Positions 3,037-59,693 of a stretch of DNA of 64,000 nt are shown here, piece by piece (the stretch's first letter is position 1; each line of letters starts with the position of its first letter). A program made the position numbers and the translations under genes. The DNA is from Parcubacteria bacterium C7867-006. Its GTDB lineage: Bacteria > Patescibacteriota > Minisyncoccia > Phycocordibacterales > DATDWN01. The DNA lies in the NCBI GenBank assembly GCA_001189155.1, contig LFCP01000004.1:68782-132781 (forward strand), written 5' to 3'. A model generated the notes under the pieces. The model ran no database searches, had not been told where the DNA came from, and was given only the letters and a program-made list of their open reading frames with translations.

Positions 3037-3210
3037 CTATGCCCCAACAAGGGCCCTAGAACGTCCTCGAAGGCGAGGTCGAAGGTGAGAGAAAGCCTCT
3101 CTGCCGAGGCCGGGCCTCACCTCATCGAGGAGAGAGCCGGCAACACCAACGCACGCGAGGATGCAAGCGACGAGAACGGAACCTTTGACAAGCACTTCTT
3201 GGAAGTCCAT
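3037..3210 (-). CDS. small GC-rich hydrophobic protein (57 aa; MDFQEVLVKGSVLVACILACVGVAGSLLDEVRPGLGREAFSHLRPRLRGRSRALVGA)
   Basis: ATG with weak AAGGG SD; N-terminal TM-like segment; C-terminal PRLRG shared with ORF 3330..3530; followed by hairpin copy 1; upstream TTTGACG -35-like box. Confidence 0.3.
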   Translation of the reverse strand: MDFQEVLVKGSVLVACILACVGVAGSLLDEVRPGLGREAFSHLRPRLRGRSRALVGA

Positions 3211-3293
3211 GCACGGCCCTTTCGTCTAACTACCCAAAGATAATTATGTATTTTATTTATAAAAACGTCAAACAATCTTTATATAAACGAACA

Positions 3294-3321
3294 CCGGCGG
3301 CCCCCAATGGAGACACGCCGG
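3294..3321 (-). terminator. GC hairpin CCGGCG-loop(gcCCCAATGGAGACA)-CGCCGG, copy 2, 9 nt after stop of ORF 3330..3530, followed by T-rich tract
   Basis: 6-bp stem; loop motif shared with copy 1. Confidence 0.4.
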
Positions 3322-3329
3322 CAGTATAT

Positions 3330-3530
3330 CTATGTCCGAATCGCACCGCGAAGTCGAGGTGTATGCATATGGCACCTGATCCACACCCAGAAGGTAGAGA
3401 TAGAGCAATATGCGAAACACACAACAACGGCACAAAGAACATAGAAGACGATGAGGCAGATCACTCCGATGACAGTAGCTACCACTGTGGCAGCTATCAC
3501 CAAGAAAATGAGCAAGGCCTCCACGTACAT
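3330..3530 (-). CDS. small GC-rich transmembrane protein (66 aa; MYVEALLIFLVIAATVVATVIGVICLIVFYVLCAVVVCFAYCSISTFWVWIRCHMHTPRLRGAIRT)
   Basis: ATG overlaps stop of upstream ORF (TGATG coupling) with GGAG 3 nt upstream; about 35-residue hydrophobic stretch; terminator hairpin downstream. Confidence 0.35.
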   Translation of the reverse strand: MYVEALLIFLVIAATVVATVIGVICLIVFYVLCAVVVCFAYCSISTFWVWIRCHMHTPRLRGAIRT

Positions 3531-3739
3531 CAGCTCCAGTACGGAGAGTGGTCGAGCTTCGGAACCGTCCGTGGTCGAGCTTCCTCGTACCATCGTTCGG
3601 TGTGCCGGAGCACGACTTCCTTGGAAAGCGATGGCGAGTTCCACACCTCGGAGAAAGAACGCCGAGGTGCTTCGCTAACGATCACCACTCCATGAACGAC
3701 TGAAACCAGCCCGAAAAGCGCCTTAACGAGAGTTCCCAT
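3530..3739 (-). CDS. small GC-rich protein (69 aa; MGTLVKALFGLVSVVHGVVIVSEAPRRSF...) first gene of a 2-gene mini-operon
   Basis: strong SD GGGGAGGaagcggATG; N-terminal hydrophobic segment; TTGACA -35-like box at 3794..3799 just after uvrB stop. Confidence 0.4.
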   Translation of the reverse strand: MGTLVKALFGLVSVVHGVVIVSEAPRRSFSEVWNSPSLSKEVVLRHTERWYEEARPRTVPKLDHSPYWS

Positions 3740-7601: not shown

Positions 7602-8096
7602 TTAATTCTCTACTTTCAATAGTTCGACCTCAAAAATAAGTGTAGATCCCCCTGGTATAGGTCCATAATCCTGATATCCATAACCGTACTCTGGTGGAAC
7701 AGAAAGAAGTCTCTTTCCTCCAACTCGCATGCCAACTATTCCCTCATCCCATCCTTTTATTACCTGACCAGAACCAAGTACGAACTGGAATGGTTCACCA
7801 CGAGAAACTGAACTATCAAAAACTCTTCCATCAACAAAACGTCCTGTATAGTGAACAACAACTCTACTACCCACACTTGCAATCTCTCCTGAACCAAACT
7901 CTTCATCCTGAACTAAAAGTTGTGATTGTCCTTGCGCCATATTTATTGGGTTTATTGAATCATTATTACTAAAAATAGAAACTAGTGTCTGACCGAAAAC
8001 AAAGAAAAATCCTACTATAAAGACAGCCACAGTAACAGCTATCCATTCTTTTTGACTTAATTTTTTCATAAGACTAATTATATTACGCCTAAACAC
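7602..8096 (-). CDS. FKBP-type peptidyl-prolyl cis-trans isomerase with N-terminal membrane anchor
   Basis: VVVHYTGRFVDGRVFDSS...GWDEGIVGMRVGGKR...FEVELLKV FKBP signature. Confidence 0.8.
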   Translation of the reverse strand: MFRRNIISLMKKLSQKEWIAVTVAVFIVGFFFVFGQTLVSIFSNNDSINPINMAQGQSQLLVQDEEFGSGEIASVGSRVVVHYTGRFVDGRVFDSSVSRGEPFQFVLGSGQVIKGWDEGIVGMRVGGKRLLSVPPEYGYGYQDYGPIPGGSTLIFEVELLKVEN

Positions 8097-13296: not shown

Positions 13297-14184
13297 ATGC
13301 GTATCGCACGCTCGCTCGCTCTCGTTCTGTTGGTGTTTCTGTCGGCAACCAACGCTTTCGCCCAGAAGGGTGAATACGCTGTGCCGAAGGACGCCCAGCT
13401 CGAACAATATCCGGTACTCGAGGCCAACAAGCCTCTGACCGTGGTGCAGATCGCAGACATGCACTTGCATCCGATCCGGTTGGACAAACCGACCGTGGTT
13501 CAGAACCACTTCCGTGGACTACACGGAAAGGAAGGTCGATTCGTCGTCGAGACGTTGCCGAAAGGCACACTCGTTCTCGTCGACGAAAACAACAACCTCC
13601 GTTACAAGGAGGACTGCGGGAACCGGTTGGTGGAGTTCGACAATCAAGCACTCGTTCGGGGAATCATTTCCTCTGACAAGTTGTCTGAACCTGTTGTTGT
13701 CCACGATGGTGACACGCTGATTGTGTCGCCCGACAGTACGAAAGTCATCCCGGCAAAACCGATGATGAGTCTGTGGGATACAGTAGCTTCTACCGTTCGT
13801 AGAGGTGTTGAGTGGCTTACGCCATTTGCACATTTCATCGGATGGCTGCTACTTGCGATTCTCCTCTTCGGTATCATCTGGGCCGTCATCATGGCTGGCC
13901 TCGAGGATAGGGATAGGAGACGATACAATCGCAACCAGATGGTTGGTGATCAAACACACCCATCGCACCCGGCCGCGACTGTCCCGCCTCCTGCCCCAAA
14001 TGCCCCCGCAGCGACGACACCGGCAGCAGCTCCGGCCAATACTGAAAGGGCGTTTATCACCCACTCTGCTGGTAGCGGCTCAAATCCGCACCTTCTGCGG
14101 TGGGGAGGCTTGGACTTCCACAGCCTCGAGGTGGCACCGGACGGGGTTCACTCCCTGCGGTACCATCCCAGGACCAGTAAGTAG
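13297..14184 (+). CDS. GC-rich secreted, membrane-anchored protein of unknown function (signal peptide, ectodomain, one TM, Pro/Ala-rich tail)
   Basis: 295-aa ORF at about 57% GC; signal peptide MRIARSLALVLLVFLSATNAFAQ; TM LLLAILLFGIIWAVIMAGL; own promoter, SD and terminator. Confidence 0.55.
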   Translation: MRIARSLALVLLVFLSATNAFAQKGEYAVPKDAQLEQYPVLEANKPLTVVQIADMHLHPIRLDKPTVVQNHFRGLHGKEGRFVVETLPKGTLVLVDENNNLRYKEDCGNRLVEFDNQALVRGIISSDKLSEPVVVHDGDTLIVSPDSTKVIPAKPMMSLWDTVASTVRRGVEWLTPFAHFIGWLLLAILLFGIIWAVIMAGLEDRDRRRYNRNQMVGDQTHPSHPAATVPPPAPNAPAATTPAAAPANTERAFITHSAGSGSNPHLLRWGGLDFHSLEVAPDGVHSLRYHPRTSK

Positions 14185-19885: not shown

Positions 19886-20802
19886 TTAAGCGATTATCAA
19901 AGGATCAACTATTATTGATTTATACACATACAAAAGACCGAAAATAACAGTGAGTAAACCGATTGCCAAAAATACCATTCTTAAATTATGAGCTCTAAAC
20001 TCTATAAATACAGTAAAAGCTAAACCGATAGTTACTAACAACGCTATTAGAGAATACAAAATACTCAATGATTTCTCTGGAGAAAATAGAGCTCTTTCAA
20101 AAAAGTTTGAGTATTTCACCTTTGGTGAAACTGTAGTAGCAAGACTATTCTTTTTTGCACTCACATACAGCTCATTTGTTCCATTCTCACCCAAAACTTC
20201 TGTTGAAACCGATTCAGACAACACCGCCGAAGATGCGGCTGAAACTATTGGTTTTTCTGTAACTTTTTTTGTTGTAGTTTTTGGAGCACTGACAATAGTC
20301 TCTGGTTCAGCTGGTCTTCCGAAAAGTTGAACCACAAAAGTAGTCATTTTCCCTTGGTACATTCCATCGGCAGTAGCAATACCAATTTCTGTAAAGTTTT
20401 CGTTCATTATGTTTGCCTTGTGACCAGGAGAGTTCATCCACGCAGTGTTTACATCTACAGAATCATTAAAATTCACCGCTAGGTTTTCACCAGCGTAAGC
20501 AAAATCGTAACCAACTTGCTTGAACCAATACCATGGAGTAAATGTCCATAATTTTTTGCATCTCTGTCCTGATTTGCGTAGTCCACCAAAACTTTTGGTA
20601 AAACAAGTGCAGTAAAATCAGTACCAACTAATATACGACCGGAAACAGCAACCAAAAATAAAGCGATGACTGTAAGGAAAATTGCAAAAACAGAAACTTC
20701 TCTGAAAATATGAGGTTTATAGTTATTTACTTTATGTGGAATAAAGTATTTTTTGAACCATTTAAACATAAATAAATTGTAACAGTTAAAATCAAAAAAC
20801 AC
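19886..20802 (-). pseudogene. CAP/SCP (YkwD-like) domain membrane protein disrupted by a homopolymer frameshift
   Basis: ORFs 20479..20802 and 19886..20476 are one gene; the CAP core ...GYDFAYAGENLAVNFNDSVDVNTAWMNSPGHKANIM continues in the +1 frame through a T6 run at 20552..20557 (A7 needed). Confidence 0.55.
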
Positions 20803-20875
20803 AAACTGAACATTGTAAAGGCAACAAAAAAGCCCTATATTTAGGGCTTTTTTGTTATTTTTGCTCTTTAGTTTG

Positions 20876-23779
20876 TTATTGAGCGTTTGGATTCATTGAC
20901 CAAGGAATCAATTCTGGAAGTTGAGCCATCAACTCTGGACACTCAAGGTTATTTATCTTTGTAACTGTTGATAGATAAACTAGACCTGTTGCGCTTGTTA
21001 GTCCCCAAGGCTTTAGAACATCATCAGAATATTTTGTTTGGAAGTTTTTAACTACTCCGTATGTCATTGGTCCGTAGAAACCTGTGATAGGCAAACTTGT
21101 TCCCATATTTTTGTTCAAGAATTCTTGAAGTTTCTTAACCTGACTAGCATTGTTCTTTGAACTACCTAGTCTAAAGTGTGTATTCAAGTAAAGTCCGCAA
21201 GACTCACCTAGAACTTCACCTGCTGTAGTAGAAGCTCCCAAAACCTGACCTCCACCTCCTAGTGAACCTACAATAGGACCATTACCTCCACCTCCTCCAC
21301 TTGGTGGTGTTACTGGTGTAGGTGCTGGAATAAATGCAGCACAATCTGGGTCAGCTAGATCAACTAGTCTATCACCATCATTGTCTATACCATCAGTACA
21401 CAATGGCTGTGTGTTTTCTACTGGTTGTGCTGTAACAATAACTGTTCGTGTTGTACTAGTTGAAGCATCTTCACTGTCCATAGCTGTATAAGTAAGTGTG
21501 TATGTTCCTGGAGTTGATGTAGAAACTGTTCCAGTCACAACTATAGAGGAAGTAATATCTCCATCCTCTGGGTCTGTTGATGATGCACCTGGGTCAACAA
21601 ATGTATCACCTACTAGCAAGTTGATTGGGTTGTTTCCAAAAAGAGTAATGCTTGGTAAGTCGTTAACTGGTTTTATGTCAATAGAAACTGTTGCTGTACT
21701 ACTGTTTGTTACACCGTCGTTAGCAACAAATGTGAATGAATCAGAACCATTTTCGTTTGCATTAGGAGTATATGTAAATGCTCCTGTGTTTAAGTCAAAT
21801 GATGTAAGTGTTCCTTTTGTTGGGTTTGATGTTGTAGCAAATGTAAGTGTTTGTGCTGGAAGATCTACGTCAGTTGCAGTCATAGCTGTAGATGTTGCTG
21901 TATCCTCATCTGTTGAAACAGACAAGTCGTTTGCAACTGGTGCTTCATTTACTTCGTTAACTGTAACTTTAAAAGTTTTTGAATCCTGTAGAGCTCCATC
22001 AGTAACAGATGCTGTGAAGTTATAAACTCCAGGACCTTGGTCCTCTGCTGGTGTCCAATCAAATATTCCTGTTACAGAATCTAGTGTTACTCCAGATGGA
22101 ACTGAACCAACTAGAGAGTAAACTAAAGTATCAAGTGGACTATCTAGGTCATTAGCAGAAATAGTGAAGTTTAGATTACTCAATTCATTTACAACATAAT
22201 CAGAAATTACATTCAATATAGGTGCATTATCATTTACGTTTATAGTAACTGTTGCTGAACTAGTTAAAGTTCCGTCAGAAACCTCGTATGTGAATGAGTC
22301 TAGTCCTTGATAGTCAGTTGCTGGTGTATATGTGAACGATCCATCTGGATTCATTATTACACTAGCCCCAACAACTATTGGTTGAGTTAGAATAGAAAAT
22401 GTAAGTGTGTTTGGTAGAAGAGGAACCAAATCAGAGTCTGTAGCAACTACAGTGTCATTTACTGCTGTATTTTGGTGAGTTGATACTGTAAGAGACTGAG
22501 CAACTGGTGCAACATTTACTTCATTTACAACAACTGTTACTGCTTTTGTATCTGTTCCTCCATTTCCATCAGAAACTAATACATTAAAGTTATATGTTGC
22601 TGGGCCCTGATTCTCTGCTGGTGTCCAAGTAAATACTCCTGTAGAAGAATCTATACCGGCTCCTGTTGGTTCACCAGAAAGTGAGTATGTCATTACATCT
22701 CCAGAATCTACATCAGTAGCAGAAGCTGTAAATGATAGATTTGTAAGTTCATCTAGAGCCACAGATGTTGTTGTGCTTATAGAAAGTACTGGGTTATCAT
22801 TTACGGAGTTAACTGTAATAGAAACTGTAGCAGTATTACTATCTACTGTTCCATCATAAACTTTGAAGTTAAATGAATCAGAACCGTTGAAGTCTGCATT
22901 TGGAGTATATGTGAATGCACCTGTAGTTGAGTTGAAAGATGTTATTGTTCCGTTTGCTGGGTTTGAAGTTGTTGCGTATGTAAGAGAGTCTCCATCTATA
23001 TCAGAAGCTGCAAGGTTTGAAGAAACATCTGTATCTTCATTTATAGATATAGCAGTACTTGATGCAACTGGTGCATCGTTCTCTGGAGTAACAGTGATTG
23101 TTGTTGTTGCAACATTACTGTATCCAAGTCCATCAGAAACCTTGAATGAGAATGCGTCTCCTCCGTTATAGTTTAATGACGGAGTATATGTAACTTGATT
23201 ACCTGAAACAGAACCTAGAGTTCCGTGTGTAGGACCGTTTACAATGAAATATGTAAGAGGTTGTGCTGGAGTATCAGAATCTGTAGCTGTCATAGTCACA
23301 ACCTTTGCTGTATCTTCAGGTGTTGTTACTGAACTACCAGTTGCAGCAGGAGCTGTATTTGGAGGACAAGTTGGAACTATTTGAGTAGCATCAATCTGAT
23401 TATCTTTACCATTTGGTTTTGAGTGGTATACCATTACAGAAACAGTAGTTGTTGGAGTTGATGAATAGTGATGTGGTCCAGCTGAAAAAGTAAAACTGTA
23501 TGGTGAAGTTGTATCTCCTCCTAGGTCTAATGGAATATTTGTCTCTATGTCTCCCGTATTCCAAACAACCTGAACGTGATACTGGTCTATTTGACTACCA
23601 TTTGCTGGAGTTACAGTACCACTACCAGTTACTGTTAAATCAGTACCTAAACATGGATTTCCTGACGTAACAACAGAATCAATCGAAGCAGTTGGTTGAT
23701 CAGCTAATGCAACACTTGGGATGAGTGTGTATGGCACCGCCAAAACCAGAGTCAGAACTAACGAAGTTATTTTTTTCAT
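20876..23779 (-). CDS. large secreted adhesin-like protein: tandem cadherin-like/VCBS domains (VNDAPV, VNEAPVA, VNDNPV), DNDGD calcium motif, C-terminal peptidoglycan-binding domain
   Basis: signal peptide, >6 internally repeated about 95-aa modules, PG_binding_1-like C-terminus (LQEFLNK...GFYGPMTYGVVKNFQ). Confidence 0.7.
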   Translation of the reverse strand: MKKITSLVLTLVLAVPYTLIPSVALADQPTASIDSVVTSGNPCLGTDLTVTGSGTVTPANGSQIDQYHVQVVWNTGDIETNIPLDLGGDTTSPYSFTFSAGPHHYSSTPTTTVSVMVYHSKPNGKDNQIDATQIVPTCPPNTAPAATGSSVTTPEDTAKVVTMTATDSDTPAQPLTYFIVNGPTHGTLGSVSGNQVTYTPSLNYNGGDAFSFKVSDGLGYSNVATTTITVTPENDAPVASSTAISINEDTDVSSNLAASDIDGDSLTYATTSNPANGTITSFNSTTGAFTYTPNADFNGSDSFNFKVYDGTVDSNTATVSITVNSVNDNPVLSISTTTSVALDELTNLSFTASATDVDSGDVMTYSLSGEPTGAGIDSSTGVFTWTPAENQGPATYNFNVLVSDGNGGTDTKAVTVVVNEVNVAPVAQSLTVSTHQNTAVNDTVVATDSDLVPLLPNTLTFSILTQPIVVGASVIMNPDGSFTYTPATDYQGLDSFTYEVSDGTLTSSATVTINVNDNAPILNVISDYVVNELSNLNFTISANDLDSPLDTLVYSLVGSVPSGVTLDSVTGIFDWTPAEDQGPGVYNFTASVTDGALQDSKTFKVTVNEVNEAPVANDLSVSTDEDTATSTAMTATDVDLPAQTLTFATTSNPTKGTLTSFDLNTGAFTYTPNANENGSDSFTFVANDGVTNSSTATVSIDIKPVNDLPSITLFGNNPINLLVGDTFVDPGASSTDPEDGDITSSIVVTGTVSTSTPGTYTLTYTAMDSEDASTSTTRTVIVTAQPVENTQPLCTDGIDNDGDRLVDLADPDCAAFIPAPTPVTPPSGGGGGNGPIVGSLGGGGQVLGASTTAGEVLGESCGLYLNTHFRLGSSKNNASQVKKLQEFLNKNMGTSLPITGFYGPMTYGVVKNFQTKYSDDVLKPWGLTSATGLVYLSTVTKINNLECPELMAQLPELIPWSMNPNAQ

Positions 23780-24126
23780 AATTTTTATAAATTTAATAAT
23801 TTTTATAACGCAAAAACCGGCCTAAAAAGACCGGTTATGCTATTAGCTCCCCACAGCCCAAGCGTCCAAATACAGACTGTGGTTCATCGCCTTCTTTAGT
23901 AACAACTAAACCCTAAATATCTAACTAAATCGTATTCTACACTAACTTAAAATATCGTCAATGGTTGAGCAAATTCACTAAATTTTATTAAAATTGATTA
24001 AAAAATTAAATTATTATTATAAAAATATCATTTTTTTTAATTTTTTTAAAAAATAATGAAAATTTAGAAATTATAAAACTTCACAACGATGTGAAGTTTT
24101 ATAAAACAAAAACTAGAAAACTTTTG

Positions 24127-25245
24127 TTAAATTTTTGCGTAAATATCAACAGTTAAATTCCCTGTATTGTTTGGATAGTAAACATCATAAACTTGGAAGG
24201 AAACTGGTGAACCTAAACCCGCAAACTCATATGAATATGAGTGTAATGAACTATATCCTCCCCAATTTACTGAACCTCCGTTTACTTTTAGATCAAGTAG
24301 TTGATCGGTGTATGACTCATATGTAGAGACTGCATCAGTCCAATCTACACTTGAACCAGTTCGGAAACTATAATCAGCATCAAATGCTATACCATCCCCA
24401 GCATTTGCTGTACCAGATGCCTTCAAAACATAGTTGTGTCCTACTAGAAAAGAGTTAGATGAAGAAACAGGACTTGCCCCATTTGCTGGAACTGTAACTG
24501 TCTCTAAATAATACATTCCATCTAAAACTCCATCCGCAAGGTCTTTATGGAAGTCCTCTAGAACACTTGAGCTCAAACCATACTTTAGATGACCGTTCAT
24601 AACACTACCAAAAGTACTGTTTAACATCTCAAGAATCTGATGCCCATTACATCCATATGTGTAATCAATAGTATTCACACTAGCTGTCGGAGTTTTAATT
24701 CCTTTTTTTACTTTATTTTGCCACCAAACCCCATCTTGAACCTGCCACCTATTTGCACCCCAAGACTCATCCCAAGAAATATCTGACCCAGTCAAAGGAC
24801 AAAAATCTTGTCCGTCAGTTACACCGTCATGATCAGTATCTTTAATGGCCTTGTGGCCATCCAAACTCCACTGCCATGGAACTGTCCCGCTGATTGTTCC
24901 ATCTGAATCAATAGTTCCAGTCATATCAAACGTTGAACCTTGAGCATATGGTCCATTATAGACAACATGGAAAGAAATATTGCTTCCATCCACGACCCCA
25001 GTAACAGTTTCTGTTGTCTGTCCTACTTGATCATATGGAGCTCCACCTGCTGGGTAACCAGCATGTCCAGAAAATGACCCATTAGCATCTTGAACATCAA
25101 TCACGAAATCATGAAAGTATGTTCCAAAAACATTCCAAACATATGTTCCTCTAACATCCCAATCTGTACCAACTGCATGAGTACTTATTGGAGCCATGAA
25201 CATAACCAAAGAAAGAATTGTTAAAACAGAAAATAGTTTTTTCAT
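24127..25245 (-). CDS. secreted protein with thrombospondin type-3-like calcium-binding repeat
   Basis: signal peptide; DTDHDGVTDGQD TSP3-like motif. Confidence 0.5.
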   Translation of the reverse strand: MKKLFSVLTILSLVMFMAPISTHAVGTDWDVRGTYVWNVFGTYFHDFVIDVQDANGSFSGHAGYPAGGAPYDQVGQTTETVTGVVDGSNISFHVVYNGPYAQGSTFDMTGTIDSDGTISGTVPWQWSLDGHKAIKDTDHDGVTDGQDFCPLTGSDISWDESWGANRWQVQDGVWWQNKVKKGIKTPTASVNTIDYTYGCNGHQILEMLNSTFGSVMNGHLKYGLSSSVLEDFHKDLADGVLDGMYYLETVTVPANGASPVSSSNSFLVGHNYVLKASGTANAGDGIAFDADYSFRTGSSVDWTDAVSTYESYTDQLLDLKVNGGSVNWGGYSSLHSYSYEFAGLGSPVSFQVYDVYYPNNTGNLTVDIYAKI

Positions 25246-25419
25246 AATAATTATTAGTTAATTAATAATATTTGTACTAATAATATCGACCTTTATTCCG
25301 AGTAAATTATACTCCTCAAATTCAAAAAGAGTTAATTAATCCAACAAAACAGTGCATAACTTTTCACACAACAAAAAACCTCTATTTCTAGAGGTCTTTT
25401 GTTTATCACTCACTCTGTA

Positions 25420-26751
25420 TTACAGGCCAGCTGTAGTTAAGAATGAACTTTCAGTAGATGATGCTGTGTTGTTAGCTGCATCAGATGAAACTACTACATA
25501 GTAATATGTTGTAGAAGTTGCAAGTCCTGAAAGAGATAAAGTGTGACTTGTAACTAAAGATGAGTTATTTACCATTTGAGTATTAGCAGAAGTTAAGCTT
25601 AATGGTGTTGATGTTCCAAACCAAACTTTACTTGTTGCTGCCTCGTTTGTTGTCCAAACAATGTTTGTTGTTGTACCAAATAGATTTGATGTTCCTACTG
25701 ATGTTATAACAGGTGCTGTTGTATCTGGCGCAGCTGTCACAACTACAGAAGCTCCGGCATCAGTACATTTTGTACTAACTGACTTGTTTTTACTATCACC
25801 ACTATATGTTGCAATAAATCTGTAAGTTCCTGTTGATGTGGCAGTAAAGTTTCCTGATACATAATTACCATTACCATTTACTGTTGCACTAGCAGGTGCT
25901 GGAGTCAGAGGCATAGTACATGATGAATCATAAGGAGCGTAAACCTGGAATGATATTGTTCCTGTTGGAGCATTACCAAATGATAGTGTGGCTGTATCTT
26001 TTATTGTTCCCCCGACAACAACAGAATCTGACGCTGTGTTTGATATAACTGGTGTTGTTGATGAGTTTCCATTGTTATTCCAACCATCATTATCTCTTTT
26101 ATCATCTATTCCCTTTGGAAGAGTCTGACATTCTGGAACAATAGGTCTCTCACCATTATTTTTCTTTAACCACCCTGGTGCAATCAAATGTCCTGGAGGA
26201 ACTTTTACACAAAGTTTTTTCTCACCTCTCTCTTTTTCATCACCATTTCTTCTAAAATCTGTAGTAACTGATGTACTAGTTGAACTACTACTTTCATTTG
26301 ATAATCCTAGTTCATTCATATGCTCACTCAATTTTTTCAGAGTTTTTGGGCCCACAAAACCAACTGTCTCAAGACCAAACTTTTTCTGATATTTTTTCAG
26401 AGCCTGATTAGTAAGAGGTCCAAAATATCCAGTTATACCACCTGAATATATAGTTGGATCTGCTGCTAGGATGGCCTGTAGGGCTTTAACATCATCTCCA
26501 CTCATACCCTGTCTTAGATTTCTCATCGCAACCAAAGTTGTTGAGATATTTGCTGATGTAGAAGCAACCTGTGTCTGAGCAGCTCTAAGAGCTTGAATCT
26601 GTGCCTGTAATGTTTGAATTTGCTGTAACATACTAGCTACTGCAGCACTTTGTGTACTAGTAGTAGAAGTATCCGCAAAACCGACTGCCGGCATAACCAT
26701 AGCACTTGCCATAGCCAATCCAGCTATTCCTAAAAGTAATTTTTGTTTCAT
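25420..26751 (-). CDS. secreted protein: coiled coil, peptidoglycan-binding domain, C-terminal FN3/Ig-like domain
   Basis: signal peptide; PG_binding_1 (DDVKALQAILAADP...GYFGPLTNQALKKYQ); FN3-like C-terminus. Confidence 0.6.
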   Translation of the reverse strand: MKQKLLLGIAGLAMASAMVMPAVGFADTSTTSTQSAAVASMLQQIQTLQAQIQALRAAQTQVASTSANISTTLVAMRNLRQGMSGDDVKALQAILAADPTIYSGGITGYFGPLTNQALKKYQKKFGLETVGFVGPKTLKKLSEHMNELGLSNESSSSTSTSVTTDFRRNGDEKERGEKKLCVKVPPGHLIAPGWLKKNNGERPIVPECQTLPKGIDDKRDNDGWNNNGNSSTTPVISNTASDSVVVGGTIKDTATLSFGNAPTGTISFQVYAPYDSSCTMPLTPAPASATVNGNGNYVSGNFTATSTGTYRFIATYSGDSKNKSVSTKCTDAGASVVVTAAPDTTAPVITSVGTSNLFGTTTNIVWTTNEAATSKVWFGTSTPLSLTSANTQMVNNSSLVTSHTLSLSGLATSTTYYYVVVSSDAANNTASSTESSFLTTAGL

Positions 26752-26864
26752 AATTAATTAAATTCTATTTAATACCTAATTAAATAATAAAAACTGTCTC
26801 GCACGGTACTGTAGACGATTATACCATCTATTCATTACAAAGTTTTACATCTTATTAACAGTAT

Positions 26865-26902
26865 AAAAAACAACCTCGCGGACTCCCGAAGGAGCCGCGA
26901 GG
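26865..26902 (-). terminator. GC hairpin CCTCGCGGCTCC-ttcg-GGAGTCCGCGAGG plus T6 (on minus strand)
   Basis: 12-bp stem with one bulge, 4-nt loop, T-run. Confidence 0.55.
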
Positions 26903-26919
26903 CGTTGAGACGAGTGAAA

Positions 26920-27516
26920 CTAGAACACGTCGCCCGAGGTCCCCTCCGAAGAGTTGACCCAATTGTCGCTGATACCGTGGTACACCCACCCCCAGAATTC
27001 GTATGAGTAGGTGTTGACCGTGAAGTACGTAGTGAGCCAGGAAGCGTAACCGGGACAGTTGCCATTGATGTCGCAGGCGTAGTCCACGATGCCGATGTTA
27101 CCCTTGGTCTTCCAGGCCGGCGCCGGGTTGAGAACTCCGTCGATGATGAGCACGTACCCGCCCTCGAACGTTCCGTCTTCCTCACCGGTAAGGGGTCCGT
27201 TGTTGCCGGGGCTGGTCTGCCCAGCCTGGGCGTCGAACTGGCCGGAGTTCCGAACCACCGCGCAGTACTTGCCGTCGGGCTGAGCCCACACCTGGATCGT
27301 ACGGTTGAGATCGTCGAAGGCCCAGTTGTTGCCGGCGAGACCGGAATCCACGTCATGGATGACCTTACCCGTAACGTTGATGACCGGGGGGCCAACACGC
27401 TGGCAGGTGCCAGCGTTGACCTGGGTACCCCAGTTGAGGTTCTCGCGAGGATCAGCATTCGCATGGGAGACGACCCCCAGGACACTGGCCAGGACAGCGC
27501 ACCAAATAAACTTCAT
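26920..27516 (-). CDS. GC-rich secreted Trp/Gly/Asn-rich protein of unknown function (198 aa)
   Basis: about 58% GC; signal peptide MKFIWCAVLASVLGVVSHANA; AAGGAG SD; own terminator; overlapping alternative-frame ORF 26835..27485 is Arg/Pro-rich junk. Confidence 0.5.
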   Translation of the reverse strand: MKFIWCAVLASVLGVVSHANADPRENLNWGTQVNAGTCQRVGPPVINVTGKVIHDVDSGLAGNNWAFDDLNRTIQVWAQPDGKYCAVVRNSGQFDAQAGQTSPGNNGPLTGEEDGTFEGGYVLIIDGVLNPAPAWKTKGNIGIVDYACDINGNCPGYASWLTTYFTVNTYSYEFWGWVYHGISDNWVNSSEGTSGDVF

Positions 27517-27656
27517 TCTTCAAGCTCCTTGGAACAAAAGCGACTGGATGCCGCTTACCAAGGGTAAACTTAACAAAACTAGACACTAAAGTCAATATTT
27601 AGTCAACAAAAAATCCCCTTTCGGAGTTTTTTGTGTTCAATCTATTTTTTTTATAA

Positions 27657-28316
27657 TTATTTAACAAAAATGTGAACAACCCACCCAAACAAACTTAGTT
27701 TATTTTCATTTGCCTCAACAAAGGCCTGAGTGCTACTTGAAATACCTTCAAGGGCTTTTATCTGCGCTTGTAAATCTGCCTTTACACTTACACTAGCTGT
27801 TTTCTGTTCTGCTTTCTTTAGTCTTTCTATATGGTTCTGTGTTGTTACAATAGTACTTCGCAACTCTCCTATATTTCTATAATTAGGACCCAAAAGGAAA
27901 ACTTTTAATTTACTCTCTGAGTTCAGCTCATCAATATCTGTTTTTACTTTAGCGCTTGTTGATGCTTGCTCTTGTGCTACAAGTCTAACTTCTGCACCTA
28001 TTCCTCCATCTCTGTTGGCTACCATAAGAAGGTTTTTGACAACAGTAGAAACAGCACTTCTGTGCTCATCTCCTAAATTTTCATTATCTTCTCTTTTATC
28101 TGATGATGTTGCAGATGAATTATCATCTCCATCATCATTTCTCTCACCGCTCTCCATTTTCACTGTTCCAGTTGCACTAGCAGAAGTTTTTGATCCAACC
28201 TCAACTTCTGCTTTAGTATTAACACCAACGCTTAAAGCTGAAACTTTAACTCCAAAAACCAATAAAAACACTGATAATGCTGATAATAAATAAAATCTTT
28301 TTGTATTATTTTTCAT
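27657..28316 (-). CDS. secreted/anchored coiled-coil protein
   Basis: N-terminal signal anchor, helical repeats, acidic patch. Confidence 0.4.
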   Translation of the reverse strand: MKNNTKRFYLLSALSVFLLVFGVKVSALSVGVNTKAEVEVGSKTSASATGTVKMESGERNDDGDDNSSATSSDKREDNENLGDEHRSAVSTVVKNLLMVANRDGGIGAEVRLVAQEQASTSAKVKTDIDELNSESKLKVFLLGPNYRNIGELRSTIVTTQNHIERLKKAEQKTASVSVKADLQAQIKALEGISSSTQAFVEANENKLSLFGWVVHIFVK

Positions 28317-28386
28317 ACTCTAATTAAGACGAATAATGATAAATATTCTTTCAATATCAATTATACAATAATATTAACAAAATGCT

Positions 28387-29826
28387 CTACACAAACCCCG
28401 GGAAGAAATCTGTCTTTATGTTTGAACTCTTAACTCCCATTTTAGCAAGCGTTGATTCAAAGGCTGTTATCATTCCATGTGGGCCTGATATATAAAACAT
28501 TCTATCAGCAAAATCTGGAACATTATCTCTTATCATTTTTTCATCCACAAAACCTATTTTCATATCATCCTCAATAACAGTGCCAGCCAAATCATTAACA
28601 GCATATATCGTTTTCAATCCATAAACTTTAGCTTGATCAAATATATCTTTATAAACAATATCAGTTGGAGTTCTGTTTGAGAAAAATAAAACAATGTCTC
28701 TATTCTGACCAAAATCTAAAAGATTTTTTACCATACTTCTGAAAGGTGTAATTCCAATGCCTCCAGCGATGAAAACCAGTTTTTTATTTTTATCTTCAGG
28801 TAAAATAAACTCACCAGATAGTTGTGAAGCAATTATTTTGTCTCCAGCATTTAAAGAACCGAGTTTTTTCTTAAAAGAGCTAGAATTATTATAAAACTTT
28901 ACTCCTAGTTTTAGATTTTCCTCTGTGGGAGAAGAAGCAATAGTAAAATACCGCCTATTTCCTCTTTGATCTGGATTTTTGTGACCCAAAGTCCATTCCA
29001 GATACTGTCCAGATTTAAAATTAAATTTTTGATCAAGCTTCCATTCAAACTCATAAACATCTTTTGTTAAAGCTCTCTTCTGAATAAGAGTCAAAACCAA
29101 TCTAGCTCTCGGAGAAACTATATAAGAGAAAATATTTCCAATGACTAGAGCTAAACCTGGAGTTGAATATAGAATGCCGAACTCAAACTGAGCACCGAAC
29201 ATAAACCCTGTTATGACTGCATACATAATCTGCAGTTTTTTCGTTGGTGGAGTTGTCAGTGGTTCAGTTAGCATTATAGAACCGAAAAACAATATAGGCC
29301 CAGATATAAAAGTTATTTTTAAAATCTCTACTATATCTGAAATGGAAGAAAAGTTGAATATCAAAATACTAACAAGACTCGCCAAAACAAAAGCAAAAAA
29401 CATTTGGAATCTTTTTAGTTTTCTCAAAACAAGAAAACCTAGTATTGAAACAGGAACAACCATAGAGCTAGTCGCTACCCACCATGATGCAATACCGCTA
29501 CCAAACAGACCTATCAAAAAAATAGACACTGCTACAGGATTAAATATATGTTTTTTATCTATTGTCAGGAGGTATTTTGACGCCATGTAACTAGATATCC
29601 ATACAGACTCAACGTTTGTTTGAACTTTAAACAAGGATGAAAATAATTGATTTGTAACAAAACAAACAGCAAATAAAACAAGTAAAGTAGAAATCAGAGA
29701 TACCCCACTGTACGGTAGCACTCCAAAAAATCCGAGAACTATTGCTACTAAAGATAAAATAGTAAGTCCGTACAAAACTATTTTGTACATAGTTATTCCA
29801 TTTAGAAAATTATCTATATATTTCAT
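28387..29826 (-). CDS. polytopic membrane protein fused to C-terminal FNR-like FAD- and NAD(P)-binding oxidoreductase domain
   Basis: N-terminal 6 or more TM domain (no His pairs, so not a heme ferric-reductase domain); RRYFTIASSP (RxY[ST]), AGGIGITPF, ISGPHGM motifs. Confidence 0.7.
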   Translation of the reverse strand: MKYIDNFLNGITMYKIVLYGLTILSLVAIVLGFFGVLPYSGVSLISTLLVLFAVCFVTNQLFSSLFKVQTNVESVWISSYMASKYLLTIDKKHIFNPVAVSIFLIGLFGSGIASWWVATSSMVVPVSILGFLVLRKLKRFQMFFAFVLASLVSILIFNFSSISDIVEILKITFISGPILFFGSIMLTEPLTTPPTKKLQIMYAVITGFMFGAQFEFGILYSTPGLALVIGNIFSYIVSPRARLVLTLIQKRALTKDVYEFEWKLDQKFNFKSGQYLEWTLGHKNPDQRGNRRYFTIASSPTEENLKLGVKFYNNSSSFKKKLGSLNAGDKIIASQLSGEFILPEDKNKKLVFIAGGIGITPFRSMVKNLLDFGQNRDIVLFFSNRTPTDIVYKDIFDQAKVYGLKTIYAVNDLAGTVIEDDMKIGFVDEKMIRDNVPDFADRMFYISGPHGMITAFESTLAKMGVKSSNIKTDFFPGFV

Positions 29827-29841
29827 ATTTGTATAATACCA

Positions 29842-30714
29842 TTATGAAGTAAATATTTCCGCATTAAAACCTACAGACTTTTTCATAGAATAGTCAGAAT
29901 AAATTATCAAATACTGAAAATCAAAATGTTTTGCCAGAGTTTCTGGAGTTACAAAAAATAAACCTGTAGTGAGAATATCAGCTAGTATAGTTGTGTCAGC
30001 CAAAGTCCAAACCGCCAAAATATCTTTTGGAGAAGATAGAGTCTCTGGACTTATGACATGGTGAAAGTTCCTCCACTTACGACGATTACCCGCTGAGCCA
30101 CACAAACTCTGGTTCAAAATATCAATAGTACCTATTACCATAGTGCTATCATCCGGATGTTCTAACCCTACCTTTAATTTTTCGCCAGTAACATTTTTCT
30201 GTCTCATATCTCCACCAGCATCTACACAGTATGACTGAACACCTTCCCCCTCAATTATCTCTGAAACAATATCAACCAAATATCCTTTTCCGCCAGCACC
30301 AAAATCAAGGACTACTGGTTCTGATAATGTTAATTTTGGACTCTCCCATTTTATAACCTCATCCCAAGTTTTTGGTTTTGTTAGGTGTTTAGGAGATAAA
30401 GAATAATTTGCATCATATCCAGCGTCTACCAAAACTTGGCCAATAAGTGGAGTCACTAAACCAGAAGTCACATCATACATTTTTTTATAAAGCATCATCA
30501 TCAGATCGGCGTCTTCTGACAGTTCAAACTCACCAGACTCTTTAGACATTTTTGTCACCAAAGAATCCTCTCTAAAACGGGAGTAGTCCAGATCAAACTT
30601 CACTATCCTGTCATTTATTTTTTGAAGCAAAACAACCTCTCTTTCTTTTGAGAGGTTGTTTTGTATATCTATCTGCCAGTGTGTTCCGATAGCTTCAAAT
30701 TCAAACTTTGTCAT
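29842..30714 (-). CDS. apbE: FAD:protein FMN transferase (ApbE family)
   Basis: DFGAGGKGYLVD and C-terminal ADTTILADILTTGLF ApbE motifs; no obvious signal peptide. Confidence 0.8.
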   Translation of the reverse strand: MTKFEFEAIGTHWQIDIQNNLSKEREVVLLQKINDRIVKFDLDYSRFREDSLVTKMSKESGEFELSEDADLMMMLYKKMYDVTSGLVTPLIGQVLVDAGYDANYSLSPKHLTKPKTWDEVIKWESPKLTLSEPVVLDFGAGGKGYLVDIVSEIIEGEGVQSYCVDAGGDMRQKNVTGEKLKVGLEHPDDSTMVIGTIDILNQSLCGSAGNRRKWRNFHHVISPETLSSPKDILAVWTLADTTILADILTTGLFFVTPETLAKHFDFQYLIIYSDYSMKKSVGFNAEIFTS

Positions 30715-30721
30715 GTAAAAG

Positions 30722-31195
30722 TTAGGCTTTGGCTTGTGCTTCGATTTGATTTAGTGCATCCATAAATCCTTTTGGAGTTAGAGATGAACCAGAAACTTTA
30801 GTAAGAGCAATATCATCTACCTTTTTACCAACAACCTGAGCATTAACTCCAGAAATAAACTTAGCCTGCCACTCCTTTGACTCCTTTCTTGTTGCTTGTG
30901 ATATTACATTTGCACTAGTTACAACATCATCTTTCAAAGTTAGAGTAACTGCGATACTTTCTGAACCTCCTGGAGAAATATATGAACCAGTAGCTGAATA
31001 TGATCCGTCTTTATATAGTAAAGTTGGAGTTTGTACTGTTGGAACAGTTCCAGTTGTATCTTGAACAACAGGAGTTCCGACTACTGACTCAGTAGTTCCC
31101 TTCATATATTTATAACCTCCAAACGCACCTAGAGCTATCACAACAACTGCAACAGTCCATAAAATTGCACCGCTTCCTTTCTTTTGTTCTTCCAT
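30722..31195 (-). CDS. membrane-anchored FMN-binding domain protein (NqrC/RnfG-like), probable ApbE substrate
   Basis: N-in TM anchor; FMN_bind fold features; candidate flavinylation motif VSGSSLT near C-terminus. Confidence 0.65.
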   Translation of the reverse strand: MEEQKKGSGAILWTVAVVVIALGAFGGYKYMKGTTESVVGTPVVQDTTGTVPTVQTPTLLYKDGSYSATGSYISPGGSESIAVTLTLKDDVVTSANVISQATRKESKEWQAKFISGVNAQVVGKKVDDIALTKVSGSSLTPKGFMDALNQIEAQAKA

Positions 31196-49433: not shown

Positions 49434-49958
49434 TTATTTATTTTTATAATACTCCTCTTTCATTTCTATTGCCCGTTTTACAATATGATCACCAATCTCG
49501 CCCCAATCAAAATATTGTTTGTAATCTTTTGGATCAATTAACTTTATTTCAGTTATACTTCCATCTGGATCAGAAACAAAGTCTCCATACGGTTCAACTA
49601 TACAAAAATAGCGTAACTGATTAAATATTTTTCCATCAAAATGAACCTCTTGGTACCCAATTGGTGCAAACGAAAGAACTCTCATATTTGATTCTTCGTG
49701 AATTTCTCTTTTCAAACATTCTTCAAATGTCTCTCCATCCTCAATACTTCCTCCTGGCAAAATCCAGTGACCACCACCTTTACTACTATATACAACAACC
49801 ATGTTATCCCCAACAAAACAAACCCCATATGTTTGGGTTACCTTATTATCCAAAAGATGACTAAATGAATCTGCGTCTTCATAGGTGACTTCTGCTAGCT
49901 TACCTTCTTTGTCAGTGAATTGAGATTTAATTTGCATTATATTTATTTTAACTGACAA
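49434..49958 (-). CDS. NUDIX hydrolase (paralog 2)
   Basis: Nudix box PGGSIEDGETFEECLKREIHEESNM; about 55% identical to 47923..48477 incl. shared C-terminus WGEIGDHIVKRA. Confidence 0.8.
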   Translation of the reverse strand: MSVKINIMQIKSQFTDKEGKLAEVTYEDADSFSHLLDNKVTQTYGVCFVGDNMVVVYSSKGGGHWILPGGSIEDGETFEECLKREIHEESNMRVLSFAPIGYQEVHFDGKIFNQLRYFCIVEPYGDFVSDPDGSITEIKLIDPKDYKQYFDWGEIGDHIVKRAIEMKEEYYKNK

Positions 49959-53660: not shown

Positions 53661-53678
53661 AAATTAACTATAAATAAT

Positions 53679-54320: not shown

Positions 54321-54348
54321 ATTATTAAAAATAACTACACATAAATAT

Positions 54349-54570
54349 ATGAAAGTATCAAAAATAATACATGTCAGCAGTGTTGTGGTCGGTTTAATCG
54401 GAGTAATTTCATTTTTAGCTGCAGTTTTCGGAGGAGCTGACAATTCCGTATTGGGTGTAACTAAAATCGACGCTCTGCTCTGTGCCGGAATACTTATCCT
54501 TATTGCAACATGGCTTCAGGTCGCAACAATTCATCACATGATGCTTGAAAAGCGTGGTGAAAATATTTAA
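54349..54570 (+). CDS. small 2-TM membrane protein in copper operon
   Basis: start trimmed to MKVSKII so as not to overlap DUF305 gene. Confidence 0.4.
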   Translation: MKVSKIIHVSSVVVGLIGVISFLAAVFGGADNSVLGVTKIDALLCAGILILIATWLQVATIHHMMLEKRGENI

Positions 54571-54586
54571 ATTGTCGTAGTAATTT

Positions 54587-55594: not shown

Positions 55595-55609
55595 TCTTAT
55601 TAATAATCT

Positions 55610-59690: not shown

Positions 59691-59693
59691 AAA

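Follow-up and report, generated by a model that had tools for sequence, protein, structure and literature searches.

In Clostridioides difficile, the class II c-di-GMP riboswitches Cdi2_1 and Cdi2_3 lie upstream of the genes for the adhesins CD2831 and CD3246, and Cdi2_4 lies upstream of the type IV pilus operon (PMC11477304). In Bacillus thuringiensis, the c-di-GMP-I riboswitch Bc2 is reported to control the collagen adhesion protein Cap (PMC4933901). We analyzed a 64-kb stretch (the window) from Parcubacteria bacterium C7867-006, an ultra-small groundwater bacterium with a 652-kb, 36%-GC genome, and found a comparable arrangement. As in C. difficile, an RF01786 aptamer sits in the 5' leader of a gene for a secreted, apparently cell-wall-attached adhesin, and it is predicted to be a transcriptional ON switch that acts by blocking terminator formation. 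As in B. thuringiensis, a c-di-GMP-sensing leader RNA would gate a large surface adhesin, although the aptamer here is class II rather than GEMM-I, the bacterium belongs to another phylum, and adhesin and anchor are built differently. The locus also differs from those of C. difficile in that the host is a Patescibacterium with no c-di-GMP enzymes seen in the sequence searched, an LPXTG sortase signal is replaced by a predicted non-covalent, PG_binding_1-like C-terminal cassette, the adhesin has a conserved CAP-domain partner gene with no PPEP-1-type releasing protease seen, and the aptamer carries a C.A mismatch in its pseudoknot. We consider it probable that the region is a strain-variable secreted-protein island whose core consists of an ON riboswitch leader, a wall-anchored adhesin with exchangeable passengers and a CAP protein. 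A riboswitch in front of an adhesin would point to attachment being regulated by a second messenger, a form of control that has not been described in this group.

The region (20876-28316) holds a series of minus-strand ORFs of 967, 372, 443, 198 and 219 aa, which lie exactly where the first-pass annotation had placed them, between a conserved NqrB-like/ApbE cluster on one side and Cyt-b5/MsrAB on the other. That annotation had described five consecutive genes with signal peptides, and this is borne out: all five begin with an n-region that contains K/R, followed by at least 10 residues of hydrophobic h-region and a site of the AxA type (ALA↓D, THA↓V, GFA↓D, ANA↓D and VSA↓L), indicating Sec-type export, and none of the five has a transmembrane segment beyond the signal peptide. 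Such an N terminus occurs in only 10 of the 58 ORFs of the window, and the paper describing the genome counts 1.9% of genes genome-wide as carrying a signal peptide, so a run of five is not a matter of chance. The features of the adhesin and its surroundings are as follows.

23934..23961, minus strand: sigma70-like promoter of the adhesin transcript (TTGACG, 16 nt, TAGAAT)
23820..23903, minus strand: c-di-GMP-II riboswitch aptamer (Rfam RF01786), 40 nt upstream of the adhesin ATG
23815..23836, minus strand: intrinsic terminator serving as expression platform, AACCGGUCU-UUUU-AGGCCGGUU followed by UUUGCG
20876..23779, minus strand: 967-aa secreted adhesin (signal peptide at residues 1-26, N-terminal domain, repeats plus He_PIG, Ig-like domain, anchor cassette)
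21662..23362, minus strand: repeat region, six Big_9/tandem-95/cadherin-like units of ~95 aa (about residues 140-706)
21335..21412, minus strand: acidic double-disulfide motif CTDGIDNDGDRLVDLADPDC (residues 794-813; NF033662 match at 790-815)
20879..21229, minus strand: C-terminal PG_binding_1-like wall-anchor domain (residues 851-967, after a GGGGNGP linker)
20823..20856, no strand assigned: bidirectional hairpin terminator that separates the stop codon of the adhesin from the CAP gene (15 pairs in the terminator scan)
19886..20802, minus strand: CAP/SCP-domain membrane protein gene, downstream of the adhesin and outside the coordinates of the first-pass annotation

The leader between the sigma70-like promoter and the adhesin ATG matches RF01786 over the complete model (positions 1-84) with 63.4 bits against a gathering threshold of 53.5 (cmscan, E 8.6e-12). 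The riboswitch had been missed in the first-pass annotation. The promoter agrees with 10 of 12 consensus positions and is the joint best on the minus strand in 20700-28500; the hexamer match is weak by itself because promoter-like sites in the region are no commoner than in shuffled sequence, and both the -35 and the -10 block are kept in the orthologous leaders of the related loci L003 and L065. These leaders also contain the aptamer (61.5 bits in L003), and 13 related metagenomic aptamers score 54-69.6 bits. Across 12 aptamers, 81% of cells are paired, versus 62% in shuffles and 31-43% when the partners are slid; compensatory changes occur at all eight P3 pairs, and the P3 differences between the window and L003 are paired changes. 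On the other side, the P1 helix contains three internal mismatches.

The terminator overlaps the 3' third of the aptamer, with the conserved AACCGG core as its 5' arm and the P1 3' strand supplying both the loop and the 3' arm. It has 9 pairs, 5 of them G-C (terminator scan), and it forms in the minimum free energy fold of the leader (-17.5 kcal/mol, z -4.2), as it does in that of L003; the hairpin is kept in both L003 and L065, and the overlapping design recurs in most metagenomic aptamers of the RF01786 type. An ON switch is predicted from this overlap. When no ligand is bound, the nascent leader would adopt the terminator fold and transcription would halt ahead of the adhesin ATG; when c-di-GMP is bound, the aptamer would retain P1 and the AACCGG core, the terminator would be blocked and the adhesin would be made.

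A possible objection is that the aptamer is a degenerate or re-specialized relative of the c-di-GMP-II class, which responds to another nucleotide signal or serves as a constitutive leader with a terminator. In three related genomes (the window, L003 and L065) the 3' strand of the pseudoknot is fixed as GCAU, where 10 other aptamers have GCGU; one of the four pseudoknot pairs thereby becomes a C.A mismatch, which could reduce or change ligand binding. Moreover, a Pfam search of 57 of the ORFs of the window, less than 15% of the genome, found no GGDEF, EAL, HD-GYP or PilZ protein, nor did any turn up in related loci totaling 545 kb. We nevertheless regard this reading as unlikely. The other highly conserved core positions (GAUGAA, UAU-UGG, GAGC and AACCG) are intact, and the canonical model is the top scorer of its clan. 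The unit of promoter, aptamer and terminator (23815-23961) is conserved in three genomes, and the aptamer and its matching terminator have been kept together between genomes with neighboring proteins of only 79% identity, which argues for selection for a functional switch, the ligand of which is presumably c-di-GMP.

The adhesin had been credited with six or more cadherin/VCBS-like repeats and a DNDGD calcium-binding motif, and its domain search returned significant matches, well above the curated cutoffs for tandem-95. The tandem-95 repeat (NCBIfam NF012211) reaches 270.8 bits in six stretches against a cutoff of 90, Big_9 reaches 254.9 bits in six stretches, and Cadherin_5 and Cadherin_4 reach 178.6 and 157.5 bits in five stretches each; repeat boundary motifs N(D/E)xP(V/I) occur at residues 234, 422, 516 and 611. 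The cadherin-like part of the description thus stands, whereas VCBS falls just short (15.3 bits, cutoff 15.5). He_PIG (75.7 bits) and a Bact_surface_Ig-like domain (residues 711-782, 79.6 bits) complete the passenger. The protein therefore resembles other surface proteins of the tandem-95/Big_9/cadherin-like type (NF012211; PF17963, PF17892, PF17803), with six repeats far over the cutoffs, and departs from them in that the repeats are joined to a Patescibacteria-type anchor and placed under riboswitch control. DNDGD is present at residue 799, inside C794...C813, where NF033662 scores 35.1 bits, under its cutoff of 41. The proposed C-terminal peptidoglycan-binding domain is supported by PF01471 (25.8 bits, cutoff 23) but covers only profile positions 2-41 of 57; the C terminus also matches an endolysin wall-binding domain in the PDB (7rum, E 5.7e-4). 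LPITG at residue 896 is the only LPXTG-like string and lies inside the folded domain, without a transmembrane segment or charged tail.

The acidic double-disulfide motif, the Gly-rich linker and the PG_binding_1-like domain together make up what we call the anchor cassette. A whole-library search with the anchor domain found 107 cluster representatives at E<=1e-30, and in nearly all the top matches listed it stands at the extreme C terminus of proteins of 200-6588 aa. The domain is ~117 aa long, contains a conserved pair of Cys residues and ends in an invariant ...PWSxNPNAQ, and CxDxxDNDxDxxxDxxDPxC is conserved in 46 anchor-sharing proteins. Hundreds of cluster representatives carry the cassette at their C terminus, joined to passengers of the SpaA, cadherin, VWA, PA14, DUF11 and DUF642 types. 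By its similarity to PF01471 and 7rum it resembles the non-covalent wall-binding modules of Gram-positive systems (endolysins, SleB, Zn D-Ala-D-Ala carboxypeptidase); LysM and SLH are functional analogues, and this module is C-terminal with diverse passengers. It differs from known PG_binding_1 modules in covering ~40 of 57 profile positions and in always being preceded by the acidic motif and the GGGGNGP linker, and its wall binding is a prediction. We propose that the adhesin is exported by Sec and that an exchangeable passenger is displayed through a cassette bound non-covalently to peptidoglycan, where it may help the bacterium to attach to a surface or to a partner cell.

It is conceivable that these proteins are instead envelope or S-layer-like structural and wall-maintenance parts of the cell's own surface, which are not for attachment to a partner. 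Two of the proteins carry PG_binding_1, characterized examples of which target the wall of the producer or of its prey, and the anchor cassette is very common in the group. This account agrees with ours on anchoring and differs on the target only. We consider it the less likely of the two, though worth keeping in mind, since the anchor carries passengers of classic adhesin and lectin types (cadherin-like, SpaA, VWA, PA14, Cna_B, InlK), a neighboring 372-aa protein has a LecA-like lectin fold, the swapping of passengers at one fixed locus and the presence/absence variation between close relatives form a pattern typical of interaction surfaces that are under diversifying selection, and c-di-GMP-II control is linked with adhesins and pili in Clostridia.

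The CAP gene is the conserved partner of the adhesin. A 94-nt deletion at about 20539 breaks it into two ORFs in the window, and in an otherwise identical JGI contig it is intact (325 aa, CAP 64.2 bits). A CAP gene of 325-331 aa follows the anchor-bearing protein in L003/L064, L049, L063, L065/66, L067 and L068, and hairpins equivalent to that at 20823..20856 are found in L003 and L049; the CAP/SCP-domain membrane protein would be made from its own transcript, always alongside such adhesins. The riboswitch module occurs on three other Patescibacteria-type contigs. L003 combines the riboswitch and CAP with a 1473-aa PA14/DUF642 protein whose C terminus is 70% identical over residues 846-967; L065/66 is arranged likewise around a 1057-aa PA14 protein; and in L049, where the genomic context is unrelated, the riboswitch and CAP accompany a 372-aa Ig-like protein that bears the same anchor. 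What is shared is the promoter/riboswitch/terminator, a signal peptide, the wall anchor and a separate CAP gene, and what varies is the passenger, which is cadherin-like in the window and PA14/DUF642 or Ig-like elsewhere. The riboswitch is absent from four comparable adhesin-CAP modules (L060, L063, L067 and L068), so its control is optional. Judged by these sequence comparisons, the conserved unit is the promoter/riboswitch/terminator (23815-23961) with the adhesin and the CAP gene (19886-20802).

The first-pass annotation had instead treated the five secreted genes as one attachment or host-cell-wall interaction locus. The other four are as follows.

24127..25245, minus strand: 372-aa secreted lectin-like protein (signal peptide, 8-stranded beta-barrel, acidic DTDHDGVTD loop, small helical region, beta-sandwich)
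25420..26751, minus strand: 443-aa secreted protein (PG_binding_1 at residues 84-141, C-terminal FN3-like domain)
26920..27516, minus strand: 198-aa GC-rich secreted protein (GC 0.60, GC3 0.79)
27657..28316, minus strand: 219-aa secreted protein (acidic low-complexity stretch, helical coiled-coil-like C-terminal half)

The five adjacent secreted genes do share one strand, and the block of 219-, 198- and 443-aa genes, with or without an adhesin, is found again in L059 and L060, as would be expected of a single co-regulated operon with the riboswitch as an internal attenuator. Such an operon is nonetheless improbable, and the idea of one functional locus is not supported. Each of the five genes has an upstream spacer of its own (70-347 nt), a hairpin lies 3' of the 372-aa gene, and a promoter kept in three genomes stands directly upstream of the aptamer. 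L003 (the closest relative), L065 and L049 hold riboswitch, adhesin and CAP without the other four genes, and the L060 block has neither the riboswitch nor the 372-aa gene. Across 26 Patescibacteria loci, the insert at the NqrB-like/Cyt-b5/MsrAB site is missing or different in most, and many relatives hold nothing there. The four upstream genes are thus probably independently transcribed cargo of the island that forms no operon with the adhesin.

Among the cargo, the LecA match of the 372-aa protein is assigned to its lectin-like sandwich from size and strand pattern; the protein is multi-domain, has no Pfam match and is only 15-18% identical to the galactophilic lectins PA-IL (LecA) and PllA. 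The TSP3-like calcium repeat that had been ascribed to the neighbors of the adhesin is present in it as the motif DTDHDGVTD at residue 136, but TSP_3 (16.9 bits) stays below its cutoff of 25. Of the peptidoglycan-binding and FN3 domains likewise ascribed to the neighbors, the former is solid in the 443-aa protein (PF01471, 47.5 bits; PDB matches to 5tv7 and the SleB wall-binding domain) and the latter is below cutoff (Pur_ac_phosph_N, 26.6 bits, cutoff 30). Homologues of this protein occupy the same site in L004, L008 and L009 and occur also in L059, L060 and L068. Pfam matches of the 219-aa protein are sub-threshold only (YwqH-like, 23.4 bits, cutoff 33.7), and it has homologues in L059 and L007.

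The embedded GC-rich gene was correctly singled out, with GC3 of 0.79 versus 0.18-0.24 in its neighbors; the gene is horizontally acquired, and its 198-aa product has no solved structural relative. Such a GC3 in a 36%-GC genome, together with a closest non-syntenic homologue in a 60%-GC contig, could point to a mis-assembly or a contaminant from a high-GC organism, which we regard as very remote. An independent JGI assembly has identical junctions at 100% identity, and orthologues of 82-89% identity, in the same gene order and with low-GC flanks, are present in L059, L060 and L061, from other samples.

The five consecutive minus-strand genes at 20876-28316 had been read in a first-pass annotation as a cluster of secreted surface proteins, in an account of the locus that contained no riboswitch. 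Rfam places a c-di-GMP-II riboswitch (RF01786) in the leader of one of them, the gene for a 967-aa adhesin. The features of the locus are as follows.

20876-23779, minus strand: adhesin, 967 aa, identified by its Sec-type N-terminus and by domain searches
23836-23815, minus strand: intrinsic terminator, AACCGGUCU-UUUU-AGGCCGGUU followed by UUUGCG, overlapping the 3' part of the aptamer
23820-23903, minus strand: c-di-GMP-II riboswitch aptamer (RF01786), found with the Rfam covariance model, its 3' end 40 nt 5' of the adhesin ATG
23961-23934, minus strand: sigma70-like promoter TTGACG-16-TAGAAT, about 30 nt 5' of the aptamer
24127-25245, minus strand: 372-aa protein, identical to AB201_01920 of C7867-006
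25420-26751, minus strand: 443-aa protein, PG_binding_1 at 47.5 bits
26920-27516, minus strand: 198-aa GC-rich protein, no Pfam family
27657-28316, minus strand: 219-aa protein, sub-threshold matches only

The aptamer scores 63.4 bits against a gathering threshold of 53.5 and aligns over the complete model (1-84 of 84 positions; E 8.6e-12 in a search of the whole window), and in cmscan the canonical RF01786 outscores the clan variants at this site. The consensus core nucleotides GA..C..UGA, UAU.UGG, GAG and AACCG are all found in the window's cmscan alignment and are invariant in our aptamer alignment. A metagenome scan with the core pattern returned 30 loci, and 17 picked by eye as riboswitches were submitted to Rfam; 13 of the 17 have an aptamer that exceeds the threshold, at 54-69.6 bits. 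We counted covariation on 12 aligned aptamers, using the Rfam structure plus the pseudoknot, with shuffles and slid pairing partners as controls. Paired cells made up 81% of the total, against 62% in shuffles and 31-43% with slid partners, and the covariation score was 0.578, against 0.211 and 0.10-0.16, respectively. Support is strongest in P3, where double changes occur in 8/8 pairs and 94.8% of cells are paired, and in P2 (97% paired); it is weaker for P1 (62%), a region in which the MAFFT alignment is unreliable. Paired changes in P3 are already seen between the window and its closest relative (CCACAGUC/GGCUGUGG versus CUAUAGUC/GGACUAUAG). In 10/12 aptamers the P3 loop pairs with the 3' tail as ACGC-GCGU to make the pseudoknot. 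In the window and in two relatives with the same leader (L003 and L065), GCGU is replaced by GCAU, which leaves 3/4 pairs and one C.A mismatch. Because the mismatch is fixed in this sublineage it is presumably tolerated, and it could lower affinity or alter specificity. We infer that c-di-GMP is the ligand of the aptamer. A relaxed Rfam search of 20500-29000 yielded no other credible RNA element; matches to rimP, Trp and Thr leaders were rejected as merely terminator hairpins.

The aptamer lies in a same-strand 5' leader together with an expression platform, the location expected of a c-di-GMP-II riboswitch. The aptamer's conserved AACCGG core doubles as the 5' arm of the terminator, whose loop and 3' arm are the 3' strand of P1. 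Since the terminator is built from these elements, the ligand-bound aptamer and the terminator are mutually exclusive. The minimum free energy fold of the free leader is the terminator hairpin (-17.5 kcal/mol, z = -4.2), and the leader of the orthologue folds likewise. This layout is the predicted design of a transcriptional ON switch, in which binding of c-di-GMP would prevent termination and turn the adhesin on. The 372-aa gene, which lies 5' of the adhesin promoter, closes with a hairpin of its own.

The product under this predicted control is a modular, putatively wall-anchored protein. The cadherin-like repeats attributed to the adhesin in the earlier annotation are evident: the tandem-95 model NF012211 matches six stretches at 270.8 bits, far past its cutoff of 90, and Big_9 (PF17963, 254.9 bits, cutoff 23.6), Cadherin_5 (PF17892, 178.6, cutoff 26.5) and Cadherin_4 (PF17803, 157.5, cutoff 25.1) match as well. 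Bact_surface_Ig-like scores 79.6 bits and He_PIG 75.7 bits. An acidic double-disulfide motif, CTDGIDNDGDRLVDLADPDC, stays under its cutoff (35.1 versus 41 bits). The proposed C-terminal peptidoglycan-binding domain also held up, as a marginal and partial match to PG_binding_1 (PF01471; 25.8 versus 23 bits, profile positions 2-41 of 57 only). PDB entry 7rum matches the same domain (E 5.7e-4), and PF01471 is matched by 34/46 proteins that share the anchor. The adhesin has no LPXTG sortase signal: its sole LPXTG-like string, LPITG at residue 896 (family consensus LPxTGFYGP), lies inside the peptidoglycan-binding domain, and the 67 residues after it, up to the final ...NPNAQ, are non-hydrophobic.

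A word-indexed homology search with the adhesin C-terminus gave only 5 short matches. An exhaustive search of cluster representatives with the 117-aa C-terminal domain as the query recovered 107 of them at E<=1e-30 and, with the limit relaxed to E<=1e-10, 2,592. Nearly all of the best 150 matches listed, proteins of 200-6,588 aa, end with this domain. Common to the 46 anchor proteins is a series consisting of CxDxxDNDxDxxxDxxDPxC, GGGGNGP, the peptidoglycan-binding domain and a terminal ...PWSxNPNAQ. The passengers that they carry, the exchangeable parts ahead of this anchor, are SpaA-type, cadherin-like, Ig-like, DUF642, DUF11, VWA, PA14, Cna_B and InlK domains. The C-terminal cassette probably keeps the adhesin on peptidoglycan, and the passenger would mediate adhesion to a partner cell or surface.

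Comparison with related loci separates the adhesin from most of the island in which it lies. A genome scan with the neighboring 479-aa NqrB-like protein as the query gave 26 loci, nearly all from metagenome-assembled genomes labelled Patescibacteria, e.g., Minisyncoccia, Paceibacterota, and Staskawicz- and Adlerbacteria. The relatives share a stable backbone of sigma factor, P243, FMN-binding protein, ApbE, NqrB-like protein, a variable slot, Cyt-b5, MsrA and MsrB; the slot is empty in L005, L006, L007 and L024-26 and holds about 8.5 kb in the window. In the closest relative, L003 (NqrB-like protein 79% identical), the slot contains three elements only: a riboswitch (61.5 bits), a 1473-aa PA14 and DUF642 protein that, over its last 122 residues, shares 70% identity with the C-terminus of the window adhesin, and a gene for a CAP-domain protein. 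In L065/66 the same leader (89.3 bits with our own covariance model, R1) precedes a protein of 1057 aa that combines PA14/DUF642 with this anchor; CAP, Cyt-b5 and MsrA come next, in that order. In an unrelated context on a low-GC metagenome contig, L049, the order is riboswitch (62.3 bits), a 372-aa Ig-like anchor protein (34% identical to residues 691-959 of the adhesin), a terminator and a CAP protein of 325 aa. A CAP-domain protein of 325-331 aa follows the anchor gene in 5/5 further contexts examined, with an S8 peptidase in between in L067. The riboswitch-adhesin-CAP module needs none of the other four island genes. Within it the riboswitch is optional, being present in four modules (window, L003, L065 and L049) and absent from four (L060, L063, L067 and L068); Rfam and our own covariance model found none in L004-L028, L059, L060, L063, L067 or L068.

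The window's own CAP gene (19886-20802, minus strand) is without 94 nt at about position 20539 that are present in JGI contig 3300001199 J055_10000067 (L001, 6242-6334), which is otherwise 100% identical to the window. The loss frameshifts the gene into two ORFs, whereas the JGI copy is an intact 325 aa and matches CAP (PF00188) at 64.2 bits against a cutoff of 21.1; the shortened ORF in the window reaches 26.6 bits. The window runs about 9 kb past the end of the JGI contig and therefore comes from a different assembly, and either variation within the population or an assembly error could explain the loss. The stretch immediately upstream of the island, 28387-31195 (minus strand), encodes the 479-aa protein, in which an NqrB/RnfD-like membrane domain is fused to FAD/NAD-binding domains, together with a 290-aa ApbE flavin transferase and a secreted protein of 157 aa; this conserved cluster keeps its synteny in over 20 Patescibacteria loci. 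The cluster is notable since, according to the genome paper, Parcubacteria have no riboflavin synthesis or transport (PMC4508563).

Each of the five island ORFs is where it had been placed and begins with a Sec-type N-terminus (K/R, a hydrophobic core and an AxA-like site), and none has a further transmembrane segment. Such N-termini occur in only 10/58 window ORFs, and signal-peptide genes make up 1.9% of this genome (PMC4508563), so the run of five is a real local concentration. The premise of an ultra-small bacterium was also correct: the genome of Parcubacteria bacterium C7867-006, from Hanford groundwater, has 652,563 bp at 36% GC (PMC4508563), and nearly all of the 26 related loci are from Patescibacteria. 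The domain calls for the adhesin's neighbors fared less evenly. In the 443-aa protein PG_binding_1 is solid, whereas the FN3 domain assigned with it falls short (Pur_ac_phosph_N, PF16656, 26.6 versus 30 bits) and is graded weak in the precomputed annotation too. The TSP3 repeat proposed for the 372-aa protein was not borne out, as PF02412 scores 16.9 bits versus 25 over a single 19-residue stretch; the family is present in a few homologues. The 372-aa protein is structurally similar to the solved LecA/PllA lectins. Protein P0157, annotated as Nanoarchaeota, has the conserved C-terminal part of this lectin-like family, and the domain may be common to CPR bacteria and DPANN archaea. The 219-aa protein was considered as a DUF5667 relative of the N-terminus of the Cyt-b5 protein, which was ruled out by the lack of BLASTP similarity.

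The 198-aa gene is as GC-rich as had been noticed (GC 0.60, GC3 0.79, versus GC3 0.18-0.24 in its neighbors). It could be suspected of being an assembly artefact, which we reject, as orthologues with 82-89% identity occur in the low-GC contigs L059 and L060 in the same order, 219-aa, 198-aa and 443-aa, and are still GC-rich there (GC3 0.67-0.68). A very recent transfer is rejected as well, since orthologues remain GC-rich in contigs whose nucleotide sequences have diverged by about 21-25%. Homologues of the protein number 48; one at 55% is in a 60%-GC contig, and one is labelled Acidobacteria. Judged from sequence, this pattern points to horizontal acquisition from a high-GC donor before the split of these relatives. 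A 216-aa alternative-frame ORF at 26835-27485 was dismissed as a by-product of GC-richness. Two other GC-rich islands in this 36%-GC genome, neither with a Pfam match, lie at 13297-14184 (plus strand; 295 aa with a signal peptide, one transmembrane segment and a Pro/Ala-rich tail, GC 0.56, GC3 0.64) and 3246-3695 (plus strand; a 149-aa ORF, GC 0.51), and these may be further acquisitions from high-GC donors.

The source of the ligand is the main weakness of the proposed mechanism. Pfam searches of 57 ORFs and motif regular expressions detected no GGDEF, EAL, HD-GYP or PilZ protein in the 64-kb window, which covers less than 15% of the genome, and phmmer with consensus domains as queries found no c-di-GMP enzymes in 545 kb of window and related loci. 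If diguanylate cyclases are present in these genomes, c-di-GMP signalling reaches into CPR; if they are absent, the signal that the switch senses must be exogenous or come from a host. We regard as improbable the specific proposal that the parcubacterium has no c-di-GMP of its own and that the riboswitch senses c-di-GMP, or a related dinucleotide, imported from an attached partner cell. Were it true, adhesin production would be triggered when the cell touches a host whose c-di-GMP is high, as in the sessile, biofilm state, passenger swaps behind a fixed leader and anchor would work as a cassette system by which specificity for hosts or surfaces is changed, and the always-adjacent CAP-domain membrane protein would be a dedicated display or maturation factor.

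Patescibacteria are generally credited with a very small capacity for signal transduction, and to our knowledge the regulation of partner attachment in this group (CPR) is essentially unknown. With a bona fide c-di-GMP-II riboswitch 5' of the principal kind of wall-anchored adhesin in these bacteria, second-messenger-controlled adhesion in a 0.65-Mb genome becomes a concrete hypothesis, open to testing in vitro. The module of leader, passenger, anchor cassette and CAP protein is also a handle with which to catalogue and compare adhesins in uncultivated Parcubacteria. A native leader that responds to a ligand could serve as an inducible expression tool, for which a 2024 perspective on Patescibacteria genetics explicitly calls (PMC11665869).

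The arrangement is not a new mechanism. In Clostridioides difficile, class II riboswitches of the same design act as ON switches 5' of two adhesin genes, CD2831 and CD3246, and also 5' of the operon for type IV pili (PMC11477304), and this riboswitch-adhesin pair is the closest known system. The two are alike in RNA family, leader position, predicted ON logic and a wall-attached adhesin as the target. They differ in phylum and in the means of attachment, which in the window is predicted to be a non-covalent PG_binding_1-like cassette instead of LPXTG; an exchangeable passenger with fixed leader and anchor, a constant CAP partner and the pseudoknot mismatch further set the window apart. Our literature search found no paper tying c-di-GMP riboswitches, or focused c-di-GMP signalling, to CPR, Patescibacteria or Parcubacteria. 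The genome paper ran Rfam, and its only remark on riboswitches is that FMN riboswitches are absent (PMC4508563).

Several other elements were noticed along the way. A LOOT RNA (RF03000) at 59520-59635 (plus strand; 88.2 versus 46.4 bits) lies immediately 5' of an HNH endonuclease ORF (59640-60128) and a type I restriction-modification N6 methylase (60112-61596). With a serine recombinase (56009-57331) and a ParB-methylase (57952-59223) alongside, the neighborhood resembles an island of mobile or defence genes. At 49943-50617 (minus strand), a protein that has an N-terminal anchor and an MliC-type lysozyme-inhibitor domain adjoins a copper-handling cluster at 51366-56008 (plus strand) comprising a P-type ATPase with HMA, DUF305, DsbD_2-HMA and a cupredoxin-like protein. 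Among the metagenome contigs, a 58%-GC contig (L058) has a c-di-GMP-I-GGC variant riboswitch (7703-7819, minus strand; 65.6 bits) and a weak c-di-GMP-II-like element (3060-3143, minus strand), the latter 5' of an 872-aa DUF7507/DUF11 surface protein. Five contigs of 46-59% GC (L029, L035, L042, L044 and L046) carry c-di-GMP-II aptamers with the ACGC/GCGU pseudoknot 5' of small DUF4332/helix-hairpin-helix proteins, a recurrent association that is separate from the surface proteins.
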